Below, in pieces: positions 2,318 through 27,135 of a stretch of 27,135 bases of DNA (positions within the stretch are counted from its first letter, which is position 1; every line of letters begins with the position of its first letter). The DNA comes from a virus (taxonomy: Duplodnaviria > Heunggongvirae > Uroviricota > Caudoviricetes). The stretch lies in the IMG/VR virus record IMGVR_UViG_2529292920_000017; one strand, given 5' to 3'. The translations under genes were made by a program, and so were the position numbers. The notes beneath the pieces are model-generated. The model was given only the letters and a program-made list of their open reading frames with translations. It did not search any database and had not been told where the DNA came from.

Positions 2318-2656
2318 ATGCTGAAGCAACGCCGTAATTTTCGTACCGGAACAGAACGCCACGCTAACCGTTTCACTACCAGTGCATCACGCAGCAACAT
2401 CCGCTACAGCCTGAGTGATACACACGCAACGCCGGATGGCTACCCAGTAAAACAAATCGGCGAGCACGCCTGGCTGATTGAGAAAGCTGGAATCGTGATC
2501 CACAAATGCCCACGCAATCCGTTTACCGGAAACCGCATTTTTGCATTGAGCTGTGGCGACAATCAGTTCGGGCAGGATTTCACATTATACGAAGCACTTC
2601 GCACGGTTGATCGTCTGCTTCGCGGGCAAAGTTTTATTAAACAGGCTGATTTATAA
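2318..2656 (+). CDS. hypothetical early protein
   Basis: ATG at 2318 with GAGG about 10 nt upstream; 112-aa ORF in the rightward early operon. No recognised motif. Confidence 0.55.
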   Translation: MLKQRRNFRTGTERHANRFTTSASRSNIRYSLSDTHATPDGYPVKQIGEHAWLIEKAGIVIHKCPRNPFTGNRIFALSCGDNQFGQDFTLYEALRTVDRLLRGQSFIKQADL

Positions 2657-2666
2657 CGGGTGCTTT

Positions 2667-2954
2667 ATGACCAAAGACCATGCACAAGGTGTATTTATCC
2701 GTTTTATTGATTTTCGCGGTGAACTGTTATTACGTGCATCCGCTATTGACGGAGTGACTCCGGCGGGTAAAAACGGAGCCGACGAAGCCACTTACGTCTA
2801 TCTGAACGGCACGCGACTGCTTGTGGAACTTCCGTACCAGACCGTACGAGAAATCATTAGCGAAGCTGAAAAGGCACGCCAGGTTAATGGCGATGAACCC
2901 TATATCGAAATTATTTGTATGGATTCAGAAGCTGAAATACAGAAAGCAGATTAA
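2667..2954 (+). CDS. hypothetical early protein
   Basis: ORF track 2553..2954. The 5' part overlaps the previous gene in another frame, so start placed at internal ATG 2667 (MTKDHAQGVFIRF...). Weak RBS; start uncertain. Confidence 0.45.
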   Translation: MTKDHAQGVFIRFIDFRGELLLRASAIDGVTPAGKNGADEATYVYLNGTRLLVELPYQTVREIISEAEKARQVNGDEPYIEIICMDSEAEIQKAD

Positions 2955-2965
2955 AGGGTGTTGCA

Positions 2966-3208
2966 ATGGACAAAGAATATAAAACACTCATCAACAAAGC
3001 ACTTGAGCGTTTTTATTTTCGCTTAAGTGCATCAGGCGTTCATGCTGAACGTGCAGCCCGTGACTCATTGACCAGGGCAATCCGGAGTCTGTATGACGTG
3101 GCTTTTTACGCTGATGATCTGGATGCACTTAACGAACTTTCCGAGCTGATCTGTGCCGCAGAATGCGGAGAACATATTGAACCGTATAAGCTGGGGAATA
3201 TCGCATGA
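2966..3208 (+). CDS. hypothetical early protein
   Basis: ATG at 2966, 80-aa ORF, tightly packed after the previous gene. Confidence 0.55.
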   Translation: MDKEYKTLINKALERFYFRLSASGVHAERAARDSLTRAIRSLYDVAFYADDLDALNELSELICAAECGEHIEPYKLGNIA

Positions 3209-3318
3209 GTATATTTATCTCATGGCTTGTTCTGATTATTTCGGTGGCCTGCGCCATTGGGATTATGCGAATTATTAATTCAGTGAAAAAGATCGAGCGT
3301 TTTTTCTCTGATGAATAA
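3205..3318 (+). CDS. small hydrophobic peptide (37 aa), putative membrane peptide
   Basis: Translated by hand: MSIFISWLVLIISVACAIGIMRIINSVKKIERFFSDE. ATG at 3205 overlaps the stop of the upstream gene (ATGA). One predicted transmembrane helix followed by a charged tail. Below the ORF-track size cut-off. Confidence 0.35.
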   Translation: MSIFISWLVLIISVACAIGIMRIINSVKKIERFFSDE

Positions 3319-3411
3319 CGATACAAATAAAACATCAAATTAAATAAGAAAACGTGAAAACCATCCGTATTAACGGAGGTATTCGCACACGCAAATAACG
3401 GAGATACAAAA

Positions 3412-3822
3412 ATGCACGCAAAAGAAGAAGGTATCATCAGAGCACTGAAAGAAATTTCAAAGATGGAAAGCGAAGTAGCGAAAAAAGCCGTGGCCAATGC
3501 TCACATGGACGTCGCAACCCACACAATGATAGTCGCAAAAGTCACGGCAGAAGCTGCCAAAATCATCGAAGAACAGGGTGTGGAACTTGCGCTTCTCAAA
3601 ACTAAACCAGTCACCGGACTGGATTTATCTGACACCGGACGCCTTATTTACACTATTGGCTCGGAGCCACAGCGATACACCATTATCGCCGGATTACAGA
3701 ACAAATACCTGATCACTCCTCACCCCATAAGGGAATCAGCGCTTCTGACAAATCTCCGCCTGATAGAGCGCTCTCAAGTTGCATTCATTGATGACGCCCG
3801 ACACACCGTATTTAACGCATAG
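3412..3822 (+). CDS. hypothetical early protein
   Basis: ATG at 3412 with AACGGAG upstream; 136 aa. Preceded by an AT-rich intergenic region (3319-3411). Confidence 0.6.
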   Translation: MHAKEEGIIRALKEISKMESEVAKKAVANAHMDVATHTMIVAKVTAEAAKIIEEQGVELALLKTKPVTGLDLSDTGRLIYTIGSEPQRYTIIAGLQNKYLITPHPIRESALLTNLRLIERSQVAFIDDARHTVFNA

Positions 3823-3845
3823 GGTTACTGGACAAAGGGGGTGCA

Positions 3846-4049
3846 ATGGCAATTAAGCATTTTCCCGTCGTTCGCTTTACCTCCAGAGGGCGCGAATACG
3901 AGGTCGACGAACGCCTGATTACCACTATCGACAAACATCGTTCGGAAAAGGATGCACACCACATCTACCTCACTGACGGCACTTACTTCTGCGCCACCAA
4001 CGTGGCGCGGGTGAATCTTATCCGACAGGTACAGGAGCCACGCAGATGA
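3846..4049 (+). CDS. hypothetical early protein
   Basis: ATG at 3846 with AAAGGGGG upstream; 67 aa; its stop overlaps the next start. Confidence 0.55.
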   Translation: MAIKHFPVVRFTSRGREYEVDERLITTIDKHRSEKDAHHIYLTDGTYFCATNVARVNLIRQVQEPRR

Positions 4050-21769: not shown

Positions 21770-22370
21770 TTCGTTGTTACCACCATCAGCCAGCAATTTC
21801 ATGCGTTGTGCCGAAGCCGTCGGAACACGCATTACAGACATTCCGGTAGACCTCAACACGCTGTGGTCGCCGGACACCTGCCCGGTGCATCTGCTGCCTT
21901 ATCTCGCCTGGGCGTTTTCCGTTGACCGCTGGGATCGCAACTGGCCGGAAGAGACAAAGCGACAGGTGATTCGTGATGCATGGCTGATACACCGACACAA
22001 AGGGACCATCAGCGCACTGCGAAGAGCCGTGGAGCCTCTCGGCTACCTGATTGAAGTAAAGGAGTGGTGGCAACTCAACGAGGAGCCAGGAACATTTCGC
22101 ATTGTTGTCGGAGTACTTGATCAGGGCATCACCGATGAAATGTATCAGGAACTTGAGCGCCTTATTGCGGATGCAAAACCAGTAAGTCGCCATCTGACGG
22201 GGCTGGCGATCAGCCTGAGTGTGAACGGAAAGATTTTCGTTGGTACGGGATGCTATCACGGCGATGCCCTGACGGTTTATCCCTACACCCCGGAGTCCAT
22301 TATTGTCGAAGGGGATTATTTCCCTGCCCCGGCCATTCATTTAATTGATAATCTGAGAGTAAACGCATGA
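21762..22370 (+). CDS. I: baseplate protein I
   Basis: ORF track 21729..22370; ATG at 21762 overlaps the J stop. LWSPDTCPVHLLPYLAWAFSVDRWD...ERLIADAKPVSRHL matches P2 I as recalled. Confidence 0.85.
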   Translation: MSNSLLPPSASNFMRCAEAVGTRITDIPVDLNTLWSPDTCPVHLLPYLAWAFSVDRWDRNWPEETKRQVIRDAWLIHRHKGTISALRRAVEPLGYLIEVKEWWQLNEEPGTFRIVVGVLDQGITDEMYQELERLIADAKPVSRHLTGLAISLSVNGKIFVGTGCYHGDALTVYPYTPESIIVEGDYFPAPAIHLIDNLRVNA

Positions 22371-23971
22371 CAGTGAAATACTACGCCATTCTGACTAATC
22401 AGGGCGCGGCACGACTGGCTAACGCGACGATGCTCGGCAGTAAGCTGAATCTGACGCAAATGGCCGTTGGTGATGCAAATGGTGTGTTACCAACACCAGA
22501 CCCTGCACAAACAAAACTGATTAACCAGAAACGCATTGCACCGCTGAATCTTCTGAGTGTTGACCCTAACAATCAGAGCCAGATTATTGCGGAGCAAATC
22601 ATCCCTGAAAACGAGGGAGGATTCTGGATCCGTGAGATTGGTCTTTATGATGATGAAGGTGTACTCATTGCGGTGGCAAACTGCCCGGAAACGTACAAAC
22701 CGCAGTTGCAGGAAGGCAGTGGACGCACCCAGACTATCCGCATGATTCTGGTTGTCACGAACACCGAAGCCATCACGCTGAAAATCGACCCGTCTGTGGT
22801 TCTGGCAACCCGCAAATATGTGGATGATAAAATCTCAGAGCACGAACAGTCACGACGTCACCCGGACGCCTCGCTGACCGTAAAAGGTTTTACTCAGTTA
22901 AGCAGTGCAATTAACAGTGAATCAGAAACACTGGCCGCAACACCGAAAGCGGTTAAGGCTGCATATGACCTGGCTAACGGGAAATATACCGCCCAGAACG
23001 CCACCACTACACAAAAAGGAATTGTTCAGCTCAGTAGCGCCACGAACAGCACGTCTGAAACGCTGGCAGCGACACCAAAATCTGTTAAGGCGGTAATGGA
23101 TGAAACGAACAAGAAAGCACCATTAAACAGCCCGGCACTGACCGGAACGCCAACAACACCAACAGCGCCACAGGGGACTAATAGTACCCAGATCGCAAGC
23201 ACGGCTTTCGTTATGGCCGCGATTGCCGCACTTGTAGATTCGTCACCTGATGCACTGAACACGCTGAACGAACTGGCTGCGGCGCTGGGCAATGACCCGA
23301 ATTTTGCGACCACCATGACTAACGCGCTTGCGGGTAAGCAACCGAAGGATGCCACCCTGACGGCGCTGGCAGAGCTTGCTACATCAGCAGATAAACTCCC
23401 ATATTTTACAGGGGCAGATCGTGCCGCGTTAACCGCGTTGACAAGTGTTGGACGTGCCATTCTTGGTAAAACCAGCACTCAGGGAGTTCTTGATTACCTT
23501 GGTTTGGGGGAAGGCTCTGCGCTGCCCGTTGGTGTGCCCGTTCCATGGCCCTCAGCCACGCTGCCAACGGGGTGGCTGAAATGTAACGGCGCAGCATTTT
23601 CTTCTGAAATGTACCCCAATCTGGCAAAGGCCTACCCCACCAATAAATTACCGGATTTACGGGGCGAATTTATTCGCGGCTGGGATGACGGACGGGGCGT
23701 TGATAATGGGCGCAACCTACTGTCTGCACAGTCTGACGCTATTCAGAATATAGTTGGCACTTTTGGGCGTACTCAGCTTTTTAAAGATGCGCTTAATTCA
23801 GGACCATTTAGTCAAACTGACTCTATATTATCAGTAGGCTTACAACCAACTGAGATCATTGAAGGATATGGTGCTTCTGTATGGACATTCGACGCCTCTC
23901 GCTCAGTTCGCACAGCATCTGAAACACGCCCCCATAACATTGCGTTTAATTACATCGTAAGGGCAGCATGA
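22367..23971 (+). CDS. H: tail fiber protein H: constant N-terminal part fused to the currently expressed C-terminal cassette (Hv1)
   Basis: ATG at 22367 overlapping the I stop; 534 aa. N-terminus MTVKYYAILTNQGAARLANA is the conserved P2-type fiber N-terminus. Internal tandem roughly 30-aa repeats (LSSAINSESETLAATPKAVKAA / LSSATNSTSETLAATPKSVKAV). From about 23500 the sequence (GLGEGSALPVGVPVPWPSAT...ETRPHNIAFNYIVRAA) belongs to the cassette family repeated downstream. Confidence 0.9.
   Translation: MTVKYYAILTNQGAARLANATMLGSKLNLTQMAVGDANGVLPTPDPAQTKLINQKRIAPLNLLSVDPNNQSQIIAEQIIPENEGGFWIREIGLYDDEGVLIAVANCPETYKPQLQEGSGRTQTIRMILVVTNTEAITLKIDPSVVLATRKYVDDKISEHEQSRRHPDASLTVKGFTQLSSAINSESETLAATPKAVKAAYDLANGKYTAQNATTTQKGIVQLSSATNSTSETLAATPKSVKAVMDETNKKAPLNSPALTGTPTTPTAPQGTNSTQIASTAFVMAAIAALVDSSPDALNTLNELAAALGNDPNFATTMTNALAGKQPKDATLTALAELATSADKLPYFTGADRAALTALTSVGRAILGKTSTQGVLDYLGLGEGSALPVGVPVPWPSATLPTGWLKCNGAAFSSEMYPNLAKAYPTNKLPDLRGEFIRGWDDGRGVDNGRNLLSAQSDAIQNIVGTFGRTQLFKDALNSGPFSQTDSILSVGLQPTEIIEGYGASVWTFDASRSVRTASETRPHNIAFNYIVRAA
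23487..23512 (+). other. candidate recombination site A (inside H, constant/variable boundary)
   Basis: TTCTTGATTACC-TT-GGTTTGGGGGAA. The right half and central TT are identical to the downstream cassette junctions; the left half is unique H sequence. Confidence 0.5.
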
Positions 23972-23990
23972 AAACGTTGGTTTGGGGGAA
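23965..23990 (+). other. candidate recombination site B (cassette junction)
   Basis: AGCATGAAAACG-TT-GGTTTGGGGGAA. The left half contains the stop codon of the preceding cassette (GCA TGA); the right half encodes the start of the next cassette (LGEG). Confidence 0.55.
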
Positions 23991-24515
23991 GGCTCTGCAC
24001 TGCCCGTTGGTGTACCTGTTCCGTGGCCCTCAGCCACTCCACCAACGGGCTGGCTGAAATGCAACGGCGCAGCATTTTCTTCTGAAGATTACCCCAAATT
24101 GGCACAGGCTTACCCCGCGAACAAATTACCGGATCTACGGGGTGAATTTATCCGTGGCTGGGATGATGGACGTGGCTTGGATGCTGGGCGTGCCTTGCTA
24201 AGTCTTCAGGATGACTCTTTTGAAGCGCACAGGCATGAGTCCTTTTTTTATGCGGGTATTTCACGTAATGAGACCCCATTAAAAAATCTTCCAAGTTCAG
24301 ACGAGATGCTGACTTTAAGTTCCACAACTAATGCCTTGTCCCCGGACAGTATTGATGCCACCAACTCGTTAATTGGTAATGACGATTACAACTGTCTTAT
24401 CGAAGGGAATAAAAATAACAAACGAACAGCGACAGGACTGAGTACCAGTATTGTCGGCACAGCAGAAACACGCCCCCGCAACGTTGCATTCAATTACATC
24501 GTAAGAGCTGCATGA
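23979..24515 (+). CDS. silent tail-fiber C-terminal cassette Hv2 (promoterless; no ATG)
   Basis: ORF track 23982..24515 starts at TTG. Shares the N-terminal roughly 65 aa (GEGSALPVGVPVPWPSATPPTGWLKCNGAAFSSE.YP.LA.AYP.NKLPDLRGEFIRGWDDGRG) and C-terminal ETRPRNVAFNYIVRAA with the H C-terminus; the middle is unique. Protein identical to the minus-strand cassette at 26602..27135. Confidence 0.7.
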   Translation, partial: GLGEGSALPVGVPVPWPSATPPTGWLKCNGAAFSSEDYPKLAQAYPANKLPDLRGEFIRGWDDGRGLDAGRALLSLQDDSFEAHRHESFFYAGISRNETPLKNLPSSDEMLTLSSTTNALSPDSIDATNSLIGNDDYNCLIEGNKNNKRTATGLSTSIVGTAETRPRNVAFNYIVRAA

Positions 24516-24534
24516 AAACGTTGGTTTAGGGGAA
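24509..24534 (+). other. candidate recombination site C (cassette junction)
   Basis: TGCATGAAAACG-TT-GGTTTAGGGGAA; same architecture as site B. Confidence 0.55.
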
Positions 24535-25001
24535 GGCTCTGCACTGCCCGTTGGTGTGCCCGTTCCGTGGCCCTTAGCAACACCACCAACGGGCTGGCTG
24601 AAATGTAACGGTGCAGCATTTTCTTCTGAAATGTACCCCAATCTGGCAAAAGCCTACCCCACCAATAAATTACCGGATTTACGGGGCGAATTTATTCGTG
24701 GCTGGGATGATGGGCGAGGAATTGATGCAGCACGCGCTTTATTGAGCATTCAAACCGGGATGTTGGAAAAACACCGCCATATTGTTGTAGCTAACGATGG
24801 ATATGACACAAAGGATGAATGGGAGTTGGCCACGATTTTCAAAAAACATATACACAAGGCAGGGGGCTTGATGCCACAAATACAGGAGGGAGTTTGATTC
24901 CATCACCAACGCTTCATTCACGAGGAAGTATTGGTAACACAGGTGGTAGTGAAACCCGCCCCCGCAATATTGCATTTAACTATATCGTGAGGGCGGCTTA
25001 G
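24523..25001 (+). pseudogene. tail-fiber C-terminal cassette Hv3, frameshifted
   Basis: The conserved cassette N-terminus (ORF 24556..24897) and the conserved C-terminus ETRPRNIAFNYIVRAA (ORF 24819..25001) are in different frames. The frame changes in the region of an A6 tract at 24841-24846; adding one A would join them into one cassette-length ORF. Confidence 0.6.
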
Positions 25002-25007
25002 TTATAT

Positions 25008-25619
25008 TCAACTGGCTGCTGCCAGTGGTATTTCCGGCAAGTTGATATCTGGTGCCATGTTTATATCCATTGCGTTCAGCGCGTCTATATAATCCAGCAC
25101 GGCGTTAAGCCGGGTGGTTTCTGCCTGCGTCAACTTCCGCCCGGCCTGCAACTTCAACTGAATCAGACTTATGGAAGCCATTGCCGCATCAGCCAGTGAC
25201 TGGCGCTTGGTTTCTGCCGCTTCTACTGCGGCACTATGTTGTGCCTCAGTATCTGTCACCCATTTTTCACCATCCCATTTATCGTATGGTGTCGACGGGG
25301 AGATAGTGGTTGTATTTTTCGGGTAGTCACCTAGCGTCGTGATTTCTTCGGTGTTTCCCGTGTCAGTGTTATAGACGGTTTCACCACGATGATCTGGCGT
25401 ATACTCCCATGAATTTAAATTCTCCGAACGGCGGATAGCATAGCCCGCTTTATGTGCGCCCGGGGCATCTAAACAGGAATTTGCCGGAATACCGACACCC
25501 GCAGCAAGATATTCAGTTGATTCGGAAATATATTCCCGTGTCTCACCATCATAGTTATAAACGACGATGTTTCCTGCCTGTACGGCAATAAGGTCATCAT
25601 TTAATATCGCGTTATTCAT
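25008..25619 (-). CDS. tail fiber assembly protein (Tfa, P2 gpG functional analogue)
   Basis: 203 aa, ATG at 25617-25619 overlapping the stop of cassette Hv4 (TAATG). C-terminal region KRQSLADAAMASISLIQLKLQAGRKLTQAETTRLNAVLDYIDAL is the conserved Tfa chaperone domain pattern. Encoded on the strand opposite to H. Confidence 0.8.
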   Translation of the reverse strand: MNNAILNDDLIAVQAGNIVVYNYDGETREYISESTEYLAAGVGIPANSCLDAPGAHKAGYAIRRSENLNSWEYTPDHRGETVYNTDTGNTEEITTLGDYPKNTTTISPSTPYDKWDGEKWVTDTEAQHSAAVEAAETKRQSLADAAMASISLIQLKLQAGRKLTQAETTRLNAVLDYIDALNAMDINMAPDINLPEIPLAAAS

Positions 25620-26080
25620 TATGCGGTTCTCACAATATAATTGAAGGCAATATTGCGTGGGCGGGTTTCATTCCCCTCTGAGGATTCCGTTCTGTATTGA
25701 CTGGTAAATCTACCGTTAATTGCACCTTGCCGGACGGCGTTATCTGTCGACAACAGACTATCCCCGCCTTTGTCATTTGGCACCAGTACCGTGTTATCCC
25801 ACGCATCCCATGACCGAATATTATGATAATGACTTCCTGTTAACCACCCCTGCATGCTTAAGATGACCCTTCCGGCATCCACCCCGCGCCCATCATCCCA
25901 GCCACGGATAAATTCACCGCGTAAGTCTGGTAATTTATTGGTGGGGTAAGCCATTGCCAGTCTGGGATACATTTCAGAAGAAAATGCTGCGCCGTTACAT
26001 TTCAGCCACCCCGTTGGCGGCGTGGCTGAGGGCCATGGAACAGGTACACCAACGGGCAGTGCAGAGCCTTCTCCTAAACC
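25619..26080 (-). CDS. silent tail-fiber C-terminal cassette Hv4 (minus strand, directly upstream of tfa)
   Basis: ORF track 25619..25972 begins at an internal ATG, but the same frame stays open back to site D and encodes the conserved cassette N-terminus (GEGSALPVGVPVPWPSATPPTGWLKCNGAAFSSEMYP...). Ends ETRPRNIAFNYIVRTA; unique middle. Confidence 0.65.
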   Translation of the reverse strand, partial: GLGEGSALPVGVPVPWPSATPPTGWLKCNGAAFSSEMYPRLAMAYPTNKLPDLRGEFIRGWDDGRGVDAGRVILSMQGWLTGSHYHNIRSWDAWDNTVLVPNDKGGDSLLSTDNAVRQGAINGRFTSQYRTESSEGNETRPRNIAFNYIVRTA

Positions 26081-26094
26081 AACGTTTTCATGCG
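26069..26094 (-). other. candidate recombination site D (inverted orientation)
   Basis: Plus strand reads TTCTCCTAAACC-AA-CGTTTTCATGCG, the reverse complement of the site B/C pattern. Confidence 0.55.
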
Positions 26095-26594
26095 GCTCTT
26101 ACGATGTAATTAAATGCAACGTTGCGAGGGCGAGTTTCTGTACCTACATTTCCACTAATTTCACCAAACCGTTTTACATTACGAGAGCTAATGGCTCGTA
26201 GTGAGGAAGGCACATTTAAACCGGGTTCGTCTGTTTTAACTATTCCCCCGTCCCCGTATGTAGCCAGTATTCCAGGGTTTACTCCTTCCCGTGTACTTCC
26301 CGCGGCAAGTCCATCCCCGGTCCATAATTCCATATAGTGTGCATGATCCAAAATTGTGTGTGGCTGCCAATTAAGCAGAGCGCGGCCAGCATCCACCCCG
26401 CGCCCATCATCCCAGCCGCGAATAAATTCGCCCCGTAAATCCGGTAATTTATTGGCGGGGTAGGCCTTTGCCAGATTGGGGTACATTTCAGAAGAAAATG
26501 CTGCACCGTTACATTTCAGCCAGCCCGTTGGCGGCGTGGCTGAAGGCCATGGAACGGGCACACCAACGGGCAGCGCCGAGCCTTCCCCTAAACC
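26088..26594 (-). CDS. silent tail-fiber C-terminal cassette Hv5 (minus strand)
   Basis: ORF track 26088..26561. Conserved cassette N- and C-termini (…ETRPRNVAFNYIVRAA) with a unique middle (LLNWQPHTILDHAHYMELWTGDG...). Confidence 0.65.
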   Translation of the reverse strand, partial: GLGEGSALPVGVPVPWPSATPPTGWLKCNGAAFSSEMYPNLAKAYPANKLPDLRGEFIRGWDDGRGVDAGRALLNWQPHTILDHAHYMELWTGDGLAAGSTREGVNPGILATYGDGGIVKTDEPGLNVPSSLRAISSRNVKRFGEISGNVGTETRPRNVAFNYIVRAA

Positions 26595-26608
26595 AACGTT
26601 TTCATGCA
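26583..26608 (-). other. candidate recombination site E (inverted orientation)
   Basis: Plus strand reads TTCCCCTAAACC-AA-CGTTTTCATGCA. Confidence 0.55.
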
Positions 26609-27135
26609 GCTCTTACGATGTAATTGAATGCAACGTTGCGGGGGCGTGTTTCTGCTGTGCCGACAATACTGGTACTCAGTCCTGTCGCTGTTCGTTTGTT
26701 ATTTTTATTCCCTTCGATAAGACAGTTGTAATCGTCATTACCAATTAACGAGTTGGTGGCATCAATACTGTCCGGGGACAAGGCATTAGTTGTGGAACTT
26801 AAAGTCAGCATCTCGTCTGAACTTGGAAGATTTTTTAATGGGGTCTCATTACGTGAAATACCCGCATAAAAAAAGGACTCATGCCTGTGCGCTTCAAAAG
26901 AGTCATCCTGAAGACTTAGCAAGGCACGCCCAGCATCCAAGCCACGTCCATCATCCCAGCCACGGATAAATTCACCCCGTAGATCCGGTAATTTGTTCGC
27001 GGGGTAAGCCTGTGCCAATTTGGGGTAATCTTCAGAAGAAAATGCTGCGCCGTTGCATTTCAGCCAGCCCGTTGGTGGAGTGGCTGAGGGCCACGGAACA
27101 GGTACACCAACGGGCAGTGCAGAGCCTTCCCCCAA
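26602..27135 (-). CDS. silent tail-fiber C-terminal cassette Hv6 (minus strand), reaches the window edge
   Basis: ORF track 26602..27135. The translated protein is identical to cassette Hv2 (23982..24515), so the two form a long inverted duplication. The window ends inside the next junction site (TTCCCCCAA at 27127-27135). Confidence 0.65.
   Translation of the reverse strand: MGEGSALPVGVPVPWPSATPPTGWLKCNGAAFSSEDYPKLAQAYPANKLPDLRGEFIRGWDDGRGLDAGRALLSLQDDSFEAHRHESFFYAGISRNETPLKNLPSSDEMLTLSSTTNALSPDSIDATNSLIGNDDYNCLIEGNKNNKRTATGLSTSIVGTAETRPRNVAFNYIVRAA

Follow-up and report, generated by a model that had tools for sequence, protein, structure and literature searches.

A tail-fibre cassette assembled twice, in inverted orientation, within an invertible array of a P2-like E. 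coli prophage

Why does one end of a tailed-phage sequence spell the same tail-fibre segment twice, once on each strand? The stretch of DNA analysed here (the window; 27,135 nt, IMG/VR record IMGVR_UViG_2529292920_000017) had been predicted to hold, near its right end, an inverted repeat of more than 500 bp between two cassettes, Hv2 and Hv6. A repeat search of the window bears this out and enlarges it: the arms are 757 nt long, 98% complementary, and 1640 nt apart (Table 1). Base-by-base comparison over the full length, as the original prediction had called for, reveals a core of 558 nt with 0 mismatches, followed by ~180 nt of ~95% identity, beyond which the arms diverge; the first mismatches lie at offsets 563, 566, 590, and onward, counted from the crossover centre. 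The perfect core comprises one full cassette (Hv2 = Hv6), including its stop codon, and the entire 26-bp crossover site 3′ of the cassette (s2 in one copy, s4′ in the other), and its limit is the first natural difference between the N-termini of Hv3 and Hv5. The identity far exceeds chance, since other cassette pairs reach only 84–92% over a conserved N-terminal part of ~230 nt and have no likeness in their variable parts. The outer limit of the right arm is hidden: the end of the window coincides, to within 2 nt, with the end of its source contig.

The duplicated segment is part of a multi-site invertible tail-fibre array, Min- or shufflon-like and associated with a serine invertase, in a P2-like E. 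coli prophage. The array runs Hc / Hv1 / Hv2 / Hv3 >< tfa′ Hv4′ / Hv5′ / Hv2′, followed by the invertase on a partner contig. The constant part, Hc, lies within a 534-aa ORF (22367–23971) and has 88% nucleotide identity to P2 gene H; precomputed Pfam assignments for a protein identical to the product of this ORF are Phage_tail_fib, Phage_fiber_2, and Collar, and those for a product identical to that of tfa are Caudo_TAP_N and Caudo_TAP. The window contains no tRNA genes. The A6 run that shifts the frame of Hv3 (24841–24846) is A7 in 29 related loci. A stop codon of its own closes each cassette just ahead of the following site, so that only the Hc-proximal cassette is translated, and the TTG at 23982 that opens the Hv2 ORF is no true start, being the in-frame Leu codon of GLGEGS. 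The cassettes are promoterless 3′ gene ends, expressed only if fused in frame to the Hc of gene H. The 177-aa translations of the Hv2 and Hv6 ORFs are identical, as had been stated; the accompanying description, that the two cassettes "encode identical proteins", is misleading for units that are exchange cassettes and not genes.

Table 1. Features of the array and of the inverted repeat (window coordinates).
Feature	Position	Strand	Remarks
Hc, constant 5′ part of tail-fibre gene H	22367..23498	+	up to crossover centre
Site s0 (Hc / Hv1)	23487..23512	+	GAGTTCTTGATTACC then TTGGTTTGGGGGAAGG; central TT at 23499–23500
Cassette Hv1	23499..23971	+	now fused to Hc; TGA end; Collar-type N-terminus, conserved C-terminal ETRPHNIAFNYIVRAA before the stop
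Site s1 (Hv1 end / Hv2)	23965..23990	+	GGCAGCATGAAAACG then TTGGTTTGGGGGAAGG; centre 23977
Cassette Hv2	23977..24515	+	left copy of duplicate; 177-aa ORF from TTG 23982
Left arm, inverted repeat	23982..24738		perfect over 23982–24539 (exact reverse complement of 26578–27135)
Site s2 (Hv2 end / Hv3)	24509..24534	+	AGCTGCATGAAAACG then TTGGTTTAGGGGAAGG; centre 24521; within perfect repeat; identical to s4′
Cassette Hv3	24521..25001	+	frameshift at A6 run
tfa, tail-fibre assembly chaperone gene	25008..25619	-	203-aa ORF; sole tfa of array
Cassette Hv4	25619..26082	-	directly upstream of tfa
Site s3′ (Hv5 end / Hv4)	26069..26094	-	AGCCGCATGAAAACG then TTGGTTTAGGAGAAGG; centre 26082
Cassette Hv5	26088..26596	-	
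Right arm, inverted repeat	26379..27135		perfect over 26578–27135; truncated at contig end
Site s4′ (Hv6 end / Hv5)	26583..26608	-	AGCTGCATGAAAACG then TTGGTTTAGGGGAAGG; centre 26596; within perfect repeat
Cassette Hv6	26602..27135	-	second, inverted Hv2 copy; reaches window end, 5 nt before next crossover centre
Truncated site	window end	-	

The crossover sites, five complete 26-bp copies and one truncated, are imperfect dyads (…AAAC[C/G] TT GGTTT…) around a 2-bp core. The 13-nt site core has four exact matches where about one is expected, and the sites agree with those of Phi2 and with the published consensus (PMC4134206, Table 3); in particular, the left half of s0 is the EC958 Phi2_5prime left half of that table. 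After its site every cassette opens with GLGEGSALPVG in one register, and Hc reads in frame through s0 as …LDYLGLGEGS. Sites are more than two in number and lie in both orientations (three plus; two complete and one truncated minus), allowing the overlapping inversions of a multiple-inversion array. Half-site variants (GG/AG/AA) were considered as marks of crossover points inside a cassette and were rejected, since a given variant mostly stays with its cassette regardless of the upstream sequence.

The invertase gene lies beyond the window. In the partner contig (L008) it begins 67 nt past the terminal site equivalent to the truncated one, and in those related arrays whose map extends to the invertase side it occupies the same position and is assigned to Pfam Resolvase and HTH_7. 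Such a small serine invertase (Gin/Cin/Pin/Min family) would exchange DNA at the hix-like sites that start each cassette, and the fibre gene would be completed by whichever cassette adjoins Hc. Relatives hold the same cassettes in varied orders and orientations, with plus orientation always on the left side of the tfa module and minus on the right. This comparative evidence suggests that array segments invert in the present strain also and that isomers exist; inversion within clonal cultures has been demonstrated for P2-like E. coli prophage loci (PMC4134206; PMC4272514).

The window comes from the end of draft contig AIEZ01000015.1 (GCA_000249135), and its limit is not an arbitrary cut: the NCBI contig itself extends only 2 nt further and terminates within the following crossover site. 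Contig L008 starts, in reverse complement, at the very base where the window's contig ends, and contains Hv2-Hv3-tfa′-Hv4′-Hv5′-Hv2′, then the terminal site, then the invertase; merged, the two contigs amount to ~36.9 kb, the usual length of a prophage. Their overlap of 3.16 kb was left unmerged and contains three homopolymer indels and eight transitions, from which it is clear that the assembler struggled at the array. The homopolymer-type discrepancies suggest pyrosequencing reads, and most of the differences private to L008 look like consensus errors, being unique among ~30 relatives; some of the eight transitions are alleles present in other strains. The two Hv2 copies of L008 differ at 3 nt (offsets 7, 10, and 37; the invertase-proximal copy deviates), pointing to two distinct Hv2 sequences in that DNA, whereas the copies in the window are the same at these three positions as everywhere else. 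Over both contigs the junctions are Hc–Hv1, Hv1end–Hv2, Hv2end–Hv3, Hv5end–Hv4, Hv2end–Hv5, and inv–Hv2, a set of six that fits together without conflict as one six-cassette isomer.

The reading that we favour, with modest confidence, is that a six-cassette array is truly present, with the Hv2 tip twice, and that the extra copy came from a crossover between inversion isomers. We infer both that the two copies lie on one molecule and how the duplicate originated. The duplicated unit is exactly one cassette, site to site, as in duplicates from closed genomes, which points to exchange between isomers rather than to gene conversion or to a duplication with arbitrary limits. Joining the front of one isomer to the back of another yields a duplicate with crossover sites at its ends, and such joining could be the work of homologous recombination in the cell or of an assembler given a mixed culture. 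Specifically, a single homologous crossover in the Hv3-tfa-Hv4-Hv5 block common to two co-existing isomers, 'Hc Hv1 Hv2 C Hv5′ inv' and 'Hc Hv1 C Hv5′ Hv2′ inv' on sister chromosomes or replicating phage genomes, would add one Hv2 copy delimited precisely by crossover sites. The contig runs unbroken through five crossover sites as far as the outer end of the second copy, where the assembler would have halted because the repeat is longer than the read span. The duplicate would bring no new specificity; it would double the array positions that give an Hv2-tipped fibre, would let RecA flip the inner 1.6–2 kb without the invertase, and would be raw material for later divergence. A RecA substrate had been part of the original prediction and is plausible for a perfect inverted repeat of 558 nt; the resulting inversion is the same as the invertase's own between s2 and s4′.

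Exact inverted cassette duplicates bounded by crossover sites occur in four closed E. coli replicons: AP031375 (551 nt exact), CP127303 (copies differing by a 2-nt indel), AP045758, and the P1-like plasmid CP196102 (L007; 557 nt exact, in a 14-cassette array with Hv2 twice). Together with diverged duplicates in L114, L009/L061, and L007, these indicate that cassette duplication is real in such arrays, and an 80% paralogue of Hv2 is present in L005. Four relatives (L119, L120, L113, and L118) contain a single copy of each of these cassettes, in differing order, indicating that the parental isomer types exist. Among 104 closed genomes with Hv2, within the part of the multi-match genomes that was examined, Hv2 is found twice in one array in L001 and L007 only; the array regions examined of CP104629, CM142788, and OY754453 contain no second Hv2 copy. 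A search for the window's arrangement found no closed E. coli genome that covers at least 80% of it, and the duplicated arrangement of AP031375 is unique to it, so that vertical inheritance cannot serve as proof that the duplicate is real. Closed genomes with duplicates may themselves be mis-assembled, a point that weighs against a real duplication, and the duplicate of L124 includes a run of N.

An assembly artefact is the strongest competitor, and we regard it as a possible but less likely account. The strain would have five cassettes (Hv1, Hv2, Hv3-tfa-Hv4, Hv5) in a mixture of isomers, and a single Hv2 node would have been threaded twice, first from an isomer with Hv2 before Hv3 and then from one with Hv2′ after Hv5′, with the assembler halting at the next branching crossover site. 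The second copy is 100% identical to the first and ends with its contig inside a crossover site, at the base where L008 starts. These features count against a real duplication; the identity, the site-bounded limits, and the position of one copy at a contig end are also expected of a real repeat that reads could not span. The relatives with each cassette once also fit the artefact, as does the Hv5′–Hv2′ junction, a real one that is present in L120 and L002. Arrays of this type in P2-like prophages are heterogeneous in clonal cultures, with several isomers in one culture (PMC4272514); they yield spurious alternative contigs, with a published warning of artefactual duplication (PMC4134206), and regions with multiple inversions are mis-assembled even with PacBio reads (PMC5430464). 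L100 consists of two isomers joined by a single N, a clear in-silico concatenation, and the discordant, unmerged overlap of the present contigs is in keeping with such trouble. However, the artefact requires that isomers were chosen inconsistently in both contigs, and the 3-nt difference between the copies of L008 is left unexplained; the contig also passes five other sites without a break. A five-cassette mixture also needs the junctions Hv1end–Hv3 and inv–Hv5 (the latter, between the Hv5 N-terminus and the invertase flank, would read …GGTTTAGGGGAAGGCTCGGCG preceded by ATAAAGACGAAAACG), and both are absent from both contigs.

It is improbable that two related P2-like prophages or subpopulations were cross-assembled, with the window entering the array on one and L008 leaving it on the other, both contigs borrowing a shared Hv2 block. 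E. coli genomes often carry several such prophages (AP031375 has five places that match Hv2), and the eight transitions, some of them alleles known from other strains, would fit two sources. However, IMG/VR searches returned no second left or right prophage half, the merged length fits a single prophage, and the L008-private differences are mostly of the consensus-error type. Very improbable is gene conversion that homogenised two originally different cassettes with no duplication of a module: across strains a given cassette does not always carry the same half-site variant at offsets 7 and 10, indicating that short conversion tracts do occur, but here identity spans the entire variable part, otherwise unrelated between cassettes, with the crossover site as its inner limit (the outer one being off the contig), and among relatives only L113 has a sixth distinct cassette, c70, at the Hv6 position. 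Recent duplication, a RecA substrate, and an assembly mis-join, all named in the original prediction, stay in contention, now sharpened by the site-to-site unit and the contig-end position, and a gene-conversion tract is disfavoured.

If the six-cassette array is real, we suggest, tentatively, that the duplicate records the birth step of cassette turnover, in which recombination between isomers repeatedly makes duplicates that diverge into receptor-binding tips. The exact duplicates of AP031375, CP127303, AP045758, and CP196102 would then be young and the pairs of L114 and the paralogue of L005 older; the invertase system would drive the growth of its own repertoire, and the long perfect inverted repeats left behind would permit RecA-driven switching without the invertase. 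P2- and P1-like elements of E. coli commonly carry invertible tail-fibre arrays with several cassettes, and annotation routinely splits these into rows of individual 'phage tail protein' genes. A cassette that occurs twice in such an array is either an assembly error, which would inflate gene counts and mislead predictions of host range, or a genuine intermediate in the evolution of receptor-binding repertoires, and telling one from the other is useful for prophage tail-fibre typing and phage engineering. The main value of the present case is a caution and a small evolutionary note; there is no new mechanism, and the locus is ordinary whether the duplicate is real or an artefact.

The locus is an already known kind of system. 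The R64/IncI shufflon likewise has clustered invertible segments that give alternative C-termini of one adhesin-like protein, and, as are such arrays, it is notoriously hard to assemble (PMC5430464). The shufflon acts on a pilus tip protein (pilV) through the tyrosine recombinase Rci and 19-bp sfx repeats, whereas the recombinase here (in L008 and relatives) is a serine recombinase with Resolvase and HTH_7 domains and the sites are hix-like 26-mers, and on recombinase type we rejected membership of the R64-type shufflons. Min (p15B), the P1 Cin/C segment, the Mu Gin/G segment, and e14 Pin also use a serine invertase, and Min-type systems likewise vary the 3′ end of a tail-fibre gene through numerous 26-bp sites that have a dinucleotide at their centre and lie in both orientations. 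In p15B the variable part is built from several in-frame segments, in contrast to the present array, in which every cassette is terminated by a stop immediately before the following site; in Mu and P1 each alternative has a tfa to itself, and here a single tfa serves the array. The EC958 Phi2 prophage and the 'shufflon-like' P2 prophage of EPEC E2348/69 (CP059840, among the DNA matches) have the same site family (…ATTACC TT GGTTTAGGAGAA / …AAACG TT GGTTTGGGGGAA), the same Hc (Phage_fibre_2) with Collar-domain 3′ alternatives, and the invertase at the same position, between the array and gene U. For these loci 2–3 sites and 2–4 isomers have been described, whereas the present array has five complete sites and one truncated site, and six cassette positions with one cassette occurring twice.

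Full-length comparison of the two copies of Hv2, an exchangeable 3′ cassette of tail-fibre gene H, reveals an exact inverted repeat of 558 nt (0 mismatches, by alignment and base-by-base comparison), set within inverted arms of 757 nt that the repeat finder scores as 98% complementary with a spacing of 1640 nt. The original prediction, that the second copy (Hv6) lies in an inverted repeat of more than 500 bp and yields the same 177-aa translation, is confirmed by this comparison and by comparison of the translations. Beyond the perfect core, ~180 nt match at roughly 95% before the arms diverge; this tail is the conserved N-terminal region of Hv3 and Hv5, and the inner limit of the core is the first natural difference between the N-termini of those two cassettes. 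The core comprises one entire cassette and, where that cassette ends 3′, a crossover site in full, indicating that the duplicated unit is a site-to-site module. The right arm reaches the window end, and its outer boundary lies beyond view. Other cassette pairs in the region match at 84–92% over ~230 nt only, and their variable parts share nothing, so that the Hv2/Hv6 identity goes beyond family-level resemblance.

Positions of the tail-fibre array features in the window
Feature	Position	Strand	State
Tail-fibre gene H	22367-23971
Crossover site	centre 23499	plus	complete
Crossover site	centre 23977	plus	complete
Crossover site	centre 24521	plus	complete
Crossover site	centre 26082	minus	complete
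Crossover site	centre 26596	minus	complete
Crossover site	window end		truncated
Hv3 A6 run	24841-24846		frameshifted
tfa	25008-25619	minus
Inverted arms	23982-24738 / 26379-27135
Perfect core	23982-24539 / 26578-27135

The window is a P2-like E. coli prophage, with an integrase at its left and P2-type portal, terminase, capsid, and baseplate genes. Its first 121 nt also open 12 other IMG/VR proviruses, indicating that the left edge is a recurrent prophage-boundary call of the lineage and not a contig end. Downstream of Hc, the constant 5′ part of gene H, lie six copies of a 26-bp site, …(C/G)ATGAAAACG TT GGTTT(A/G)GG(A/G)GAAGG, five of them complete and one truncated; a Collar-domain cassette begins exactly at each. 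The array, with primes marking the minus strand and tfa the tail-fibre assembly chaperone gene, reads Hc / Hv1 / Hv2 / Hv3 >< tfa' Hv4' / Hv5' / Hv6'(=Hv2'). The sites belong to the hix/gix/cix/mix family, and in relatives the last site is followed by a gene for a 199-aa Resolvase+HTH_7 recombinase. Cassettes start with GLGEGSALPVG…, end with …ETRPRN(I/V)AFNYIVRAA-stop, and are followed directly by the next site; the Hc–Hv1 reading frame is continuous through crossover site s0. This layout and frame indicate that the "177-aa proteins" are promoterless 3′ exchange cassettes. The two copies are thus identical in translation but are not proteins in their own right, the TTG "start" being the Leu codon of GLGEGS.

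The six-cassette array has one tfa, which in the present isomer lies on the strand opposite to H; all cassettes share the terminal motif ETRP(R/H)N(I/V)AFNYIVR(A/T)A, which could be a docking element for one general chaperone. An A6 run puts Hv3 out of frame; at this position L008 (the presumed partner contig) and a further 29 related loci read A7, and their cassette is intact. The draft contig probably has a homopolymer sequencing error here; otherwise the change is a private mutation that makes Hv3 a pseudogene. The cassette-side half-site is variable, with GG, AG, or AA at offsets 7 and 10 (all five complete window sites; L008 positions 2104 and 3162). The variant mostly stays with its cassette, but Hv4 and the invertase-proximal Hv2 copy have exchanged variants between the window and L008, suggesting short conversion tracts beside the crossover point.

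An exact protein match of H led to the source contig, AIEZ01000015.1 (198,131 nt; draft GCA_000249135.2), which agrees with the final 14,769 nt of the window at 0 mismatches. AIEZ01000015.1 continues for only two bases ("AC") past the window, so the second Hv2 copy runs up to a contig end that lies 3 nt from the next crossover centre. A search of IMG/VR for the Hv5'/Hv6' junction returned one contig, L008 (12,932 nt), whose start is the AIEZ01000015.1 end in exact reverse complement, from the same base onward, and which reads Hv2 / Hv3 tfa' Hv4' / Hv5' / Hv2' / terminal site / invertase / tail genes. Merging the window with L008 gives ~36.9 kb, a normal length for such prophages, and no second left half from the IMG genome of L008 was found in IMG/VR. 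Most likely, L008 is the partner of AIEZ01000015.1 and comes from the same assembly or a sister one. Over the 3.16 kb that the two contigs share, there are 8 transitions and 3 homopolymer indels, each indel private to one contig and missing from ~30 relatives.

We extended the map of sites and cassettes to over 100 related loci. Several genomes carry the same cassettes in single copy and varying order: Hc Hv1 Hv5 Hv2 Hv3 tfa' Hv4' inv (L119; inv, serine invertase), Hc Hv1 Hv4 tfa Hv3' Hv5' Hv2' inv (L120), Hc Hv5 Hv1 Hv2 Hv4 tfa Hv3' c70' inv (L113, closed), and Hc x Hv2 Hv3 tfa' Hv4' Hv5' inv (L118, closed). With C for the shared block, the window corresponds to the front of "Hc Hv1 Hv2 C Hv5' inv" and the back of "…C Hv5' Hv2' inv". 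The prefix of one isomer and the suffix of another, joined in the shared block, give a site-to-site inverted duplicate. In the cell, a single homologous crossover could produce it, the partners being sister chromosomes or replicating genomes that differ in isomeric state; in an assembler, joining isomers from a mixed culture would give the same sequence.

We consider it somewhat probable that the Hv2 duplicate is physically real. First, the six junctions in the two contigs fit together as a single, self-consistent six-cassette isomer, and the inv/Hv5 and Hv1end/Hv3 junctions required by a five-cassette mixture are in neither contig. Second, the contig reads cleanly through five sites, ending only where a perfect inverted repeat, 558 nt or longer, can no longer be resolved. 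Third, the invertase-proximal Hv2 of L008 differs from its other Hv2 at offsets 7, 10, and 37. Fourth, cassette duplication demonstrably occurs among related arrays. In particular, four closed replicons carry exact inverted cassette duplicates bounded by crossover sites: AP031375 (Hc Hv2 Hv4 tfa Hv3' Hv2' inv; identical over 551 nt from the crossover centre), CP127303 (two copies of Hv1, with a 2-nt indel between them), AP045758 (two copies of cassette c4), and CP196102 (P1-like plasmid; two copies of Hv2, identical over 557 nt). Diverged duplicates are present in L114, L009/L061, and L007, and L005 has an 80% Hv2 paralogue. As separate observations, L007 7788-14683 (NZ_CP196102.1, 92 kb, deposited linear) has ~14 cassettes and one tfa, its inverted Hv2 copies both annotated WP_072756900.1, plus one direct-repeat cassette pair and one mosaic pair; in L006 9737-11686 (NZ_AP045758.1, closed), the single tfa is split by IS4-family ISVsa5, with array and invertase intact.

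An assembly artefact from mixed inversion isomers is a less probable alternative: the second copy lies at a contig end, the copies are perfectly identical, heterogeneity of such loci is known, and the discordant overlap was left unmerged. Duplicates are also rare in closed genomes: among 104 closed Hv2 genomes, with some multi-match genomes examined, Hv2 was found twice in one array only in L001 and L007, the window's arrangement was found in no closed genome, and no other genome has that of AP031375. Draft assemblies of these arrays are visibly error-prone (L100, L124, L037). L100 1-3876 (IMGVR_UViG_2693429728_000004) concatenates two alternative isomers across a single N, where 1-782 matches 2495-3276 exactly in reverse complement and 1879-2493 recurs exactly, in direct orientation, at 3262-3876, invertase 5′ end included; it is clearly an in-silico duplication from a mixed population. 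The L124 duplicate contains a gap of Ns. In L037 6180-6660 (IMGVR_UViG_2541047915_000010), Hv3 tfa' Hv4' (truncated) meets Hv4 tfa Hv3' head-to-head in a fold-back palindrome. The join is no crossover site; it falls at a short inverted repeat in the conserved cassette N-terminus, GCCCGTTGG / CCAACGGGC (quasi-palindrome I12 of the window's repeat search). Either template switching rearranged the DNA here, or the assembly is chimeric. Cross-assembly of two related prophages is improbable, and gene conversion more improbable still.

A real duplicate would add no new specificity, two of the six positions giving the same fibre tip, and would leave a spare Hv2 copy free to diverge. A long inverted repeat would let RecA invert the Hv3-tfa-Hv4-Hv5 block; the invertase, acting at s2 x s4', the sites that end Hv2 and Hv6, would yield an identical product.

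The duplicated cassette belongs to a well-known system, and is a useful example of why duplicated cassettes in invertible arrays have to be confirmed in the reads. Experiments have demonstrated inversion in clonal cultures for this family: a three-site P2-like prophage locus in EPEC yielded four isomers (PMC4272514), and the PacBio assembly of EC958 contained contigs with alternative alleles (PMC4134206). Artefactual duplications and mis-assembly in invertible regions of this type are the subject of explicit warnings in the literature (PMC4134206, PMC5430464). The crossover sites of EC958 prophage Phi2 (PMC4134206, Table 3) have the same sequences as those of the window.
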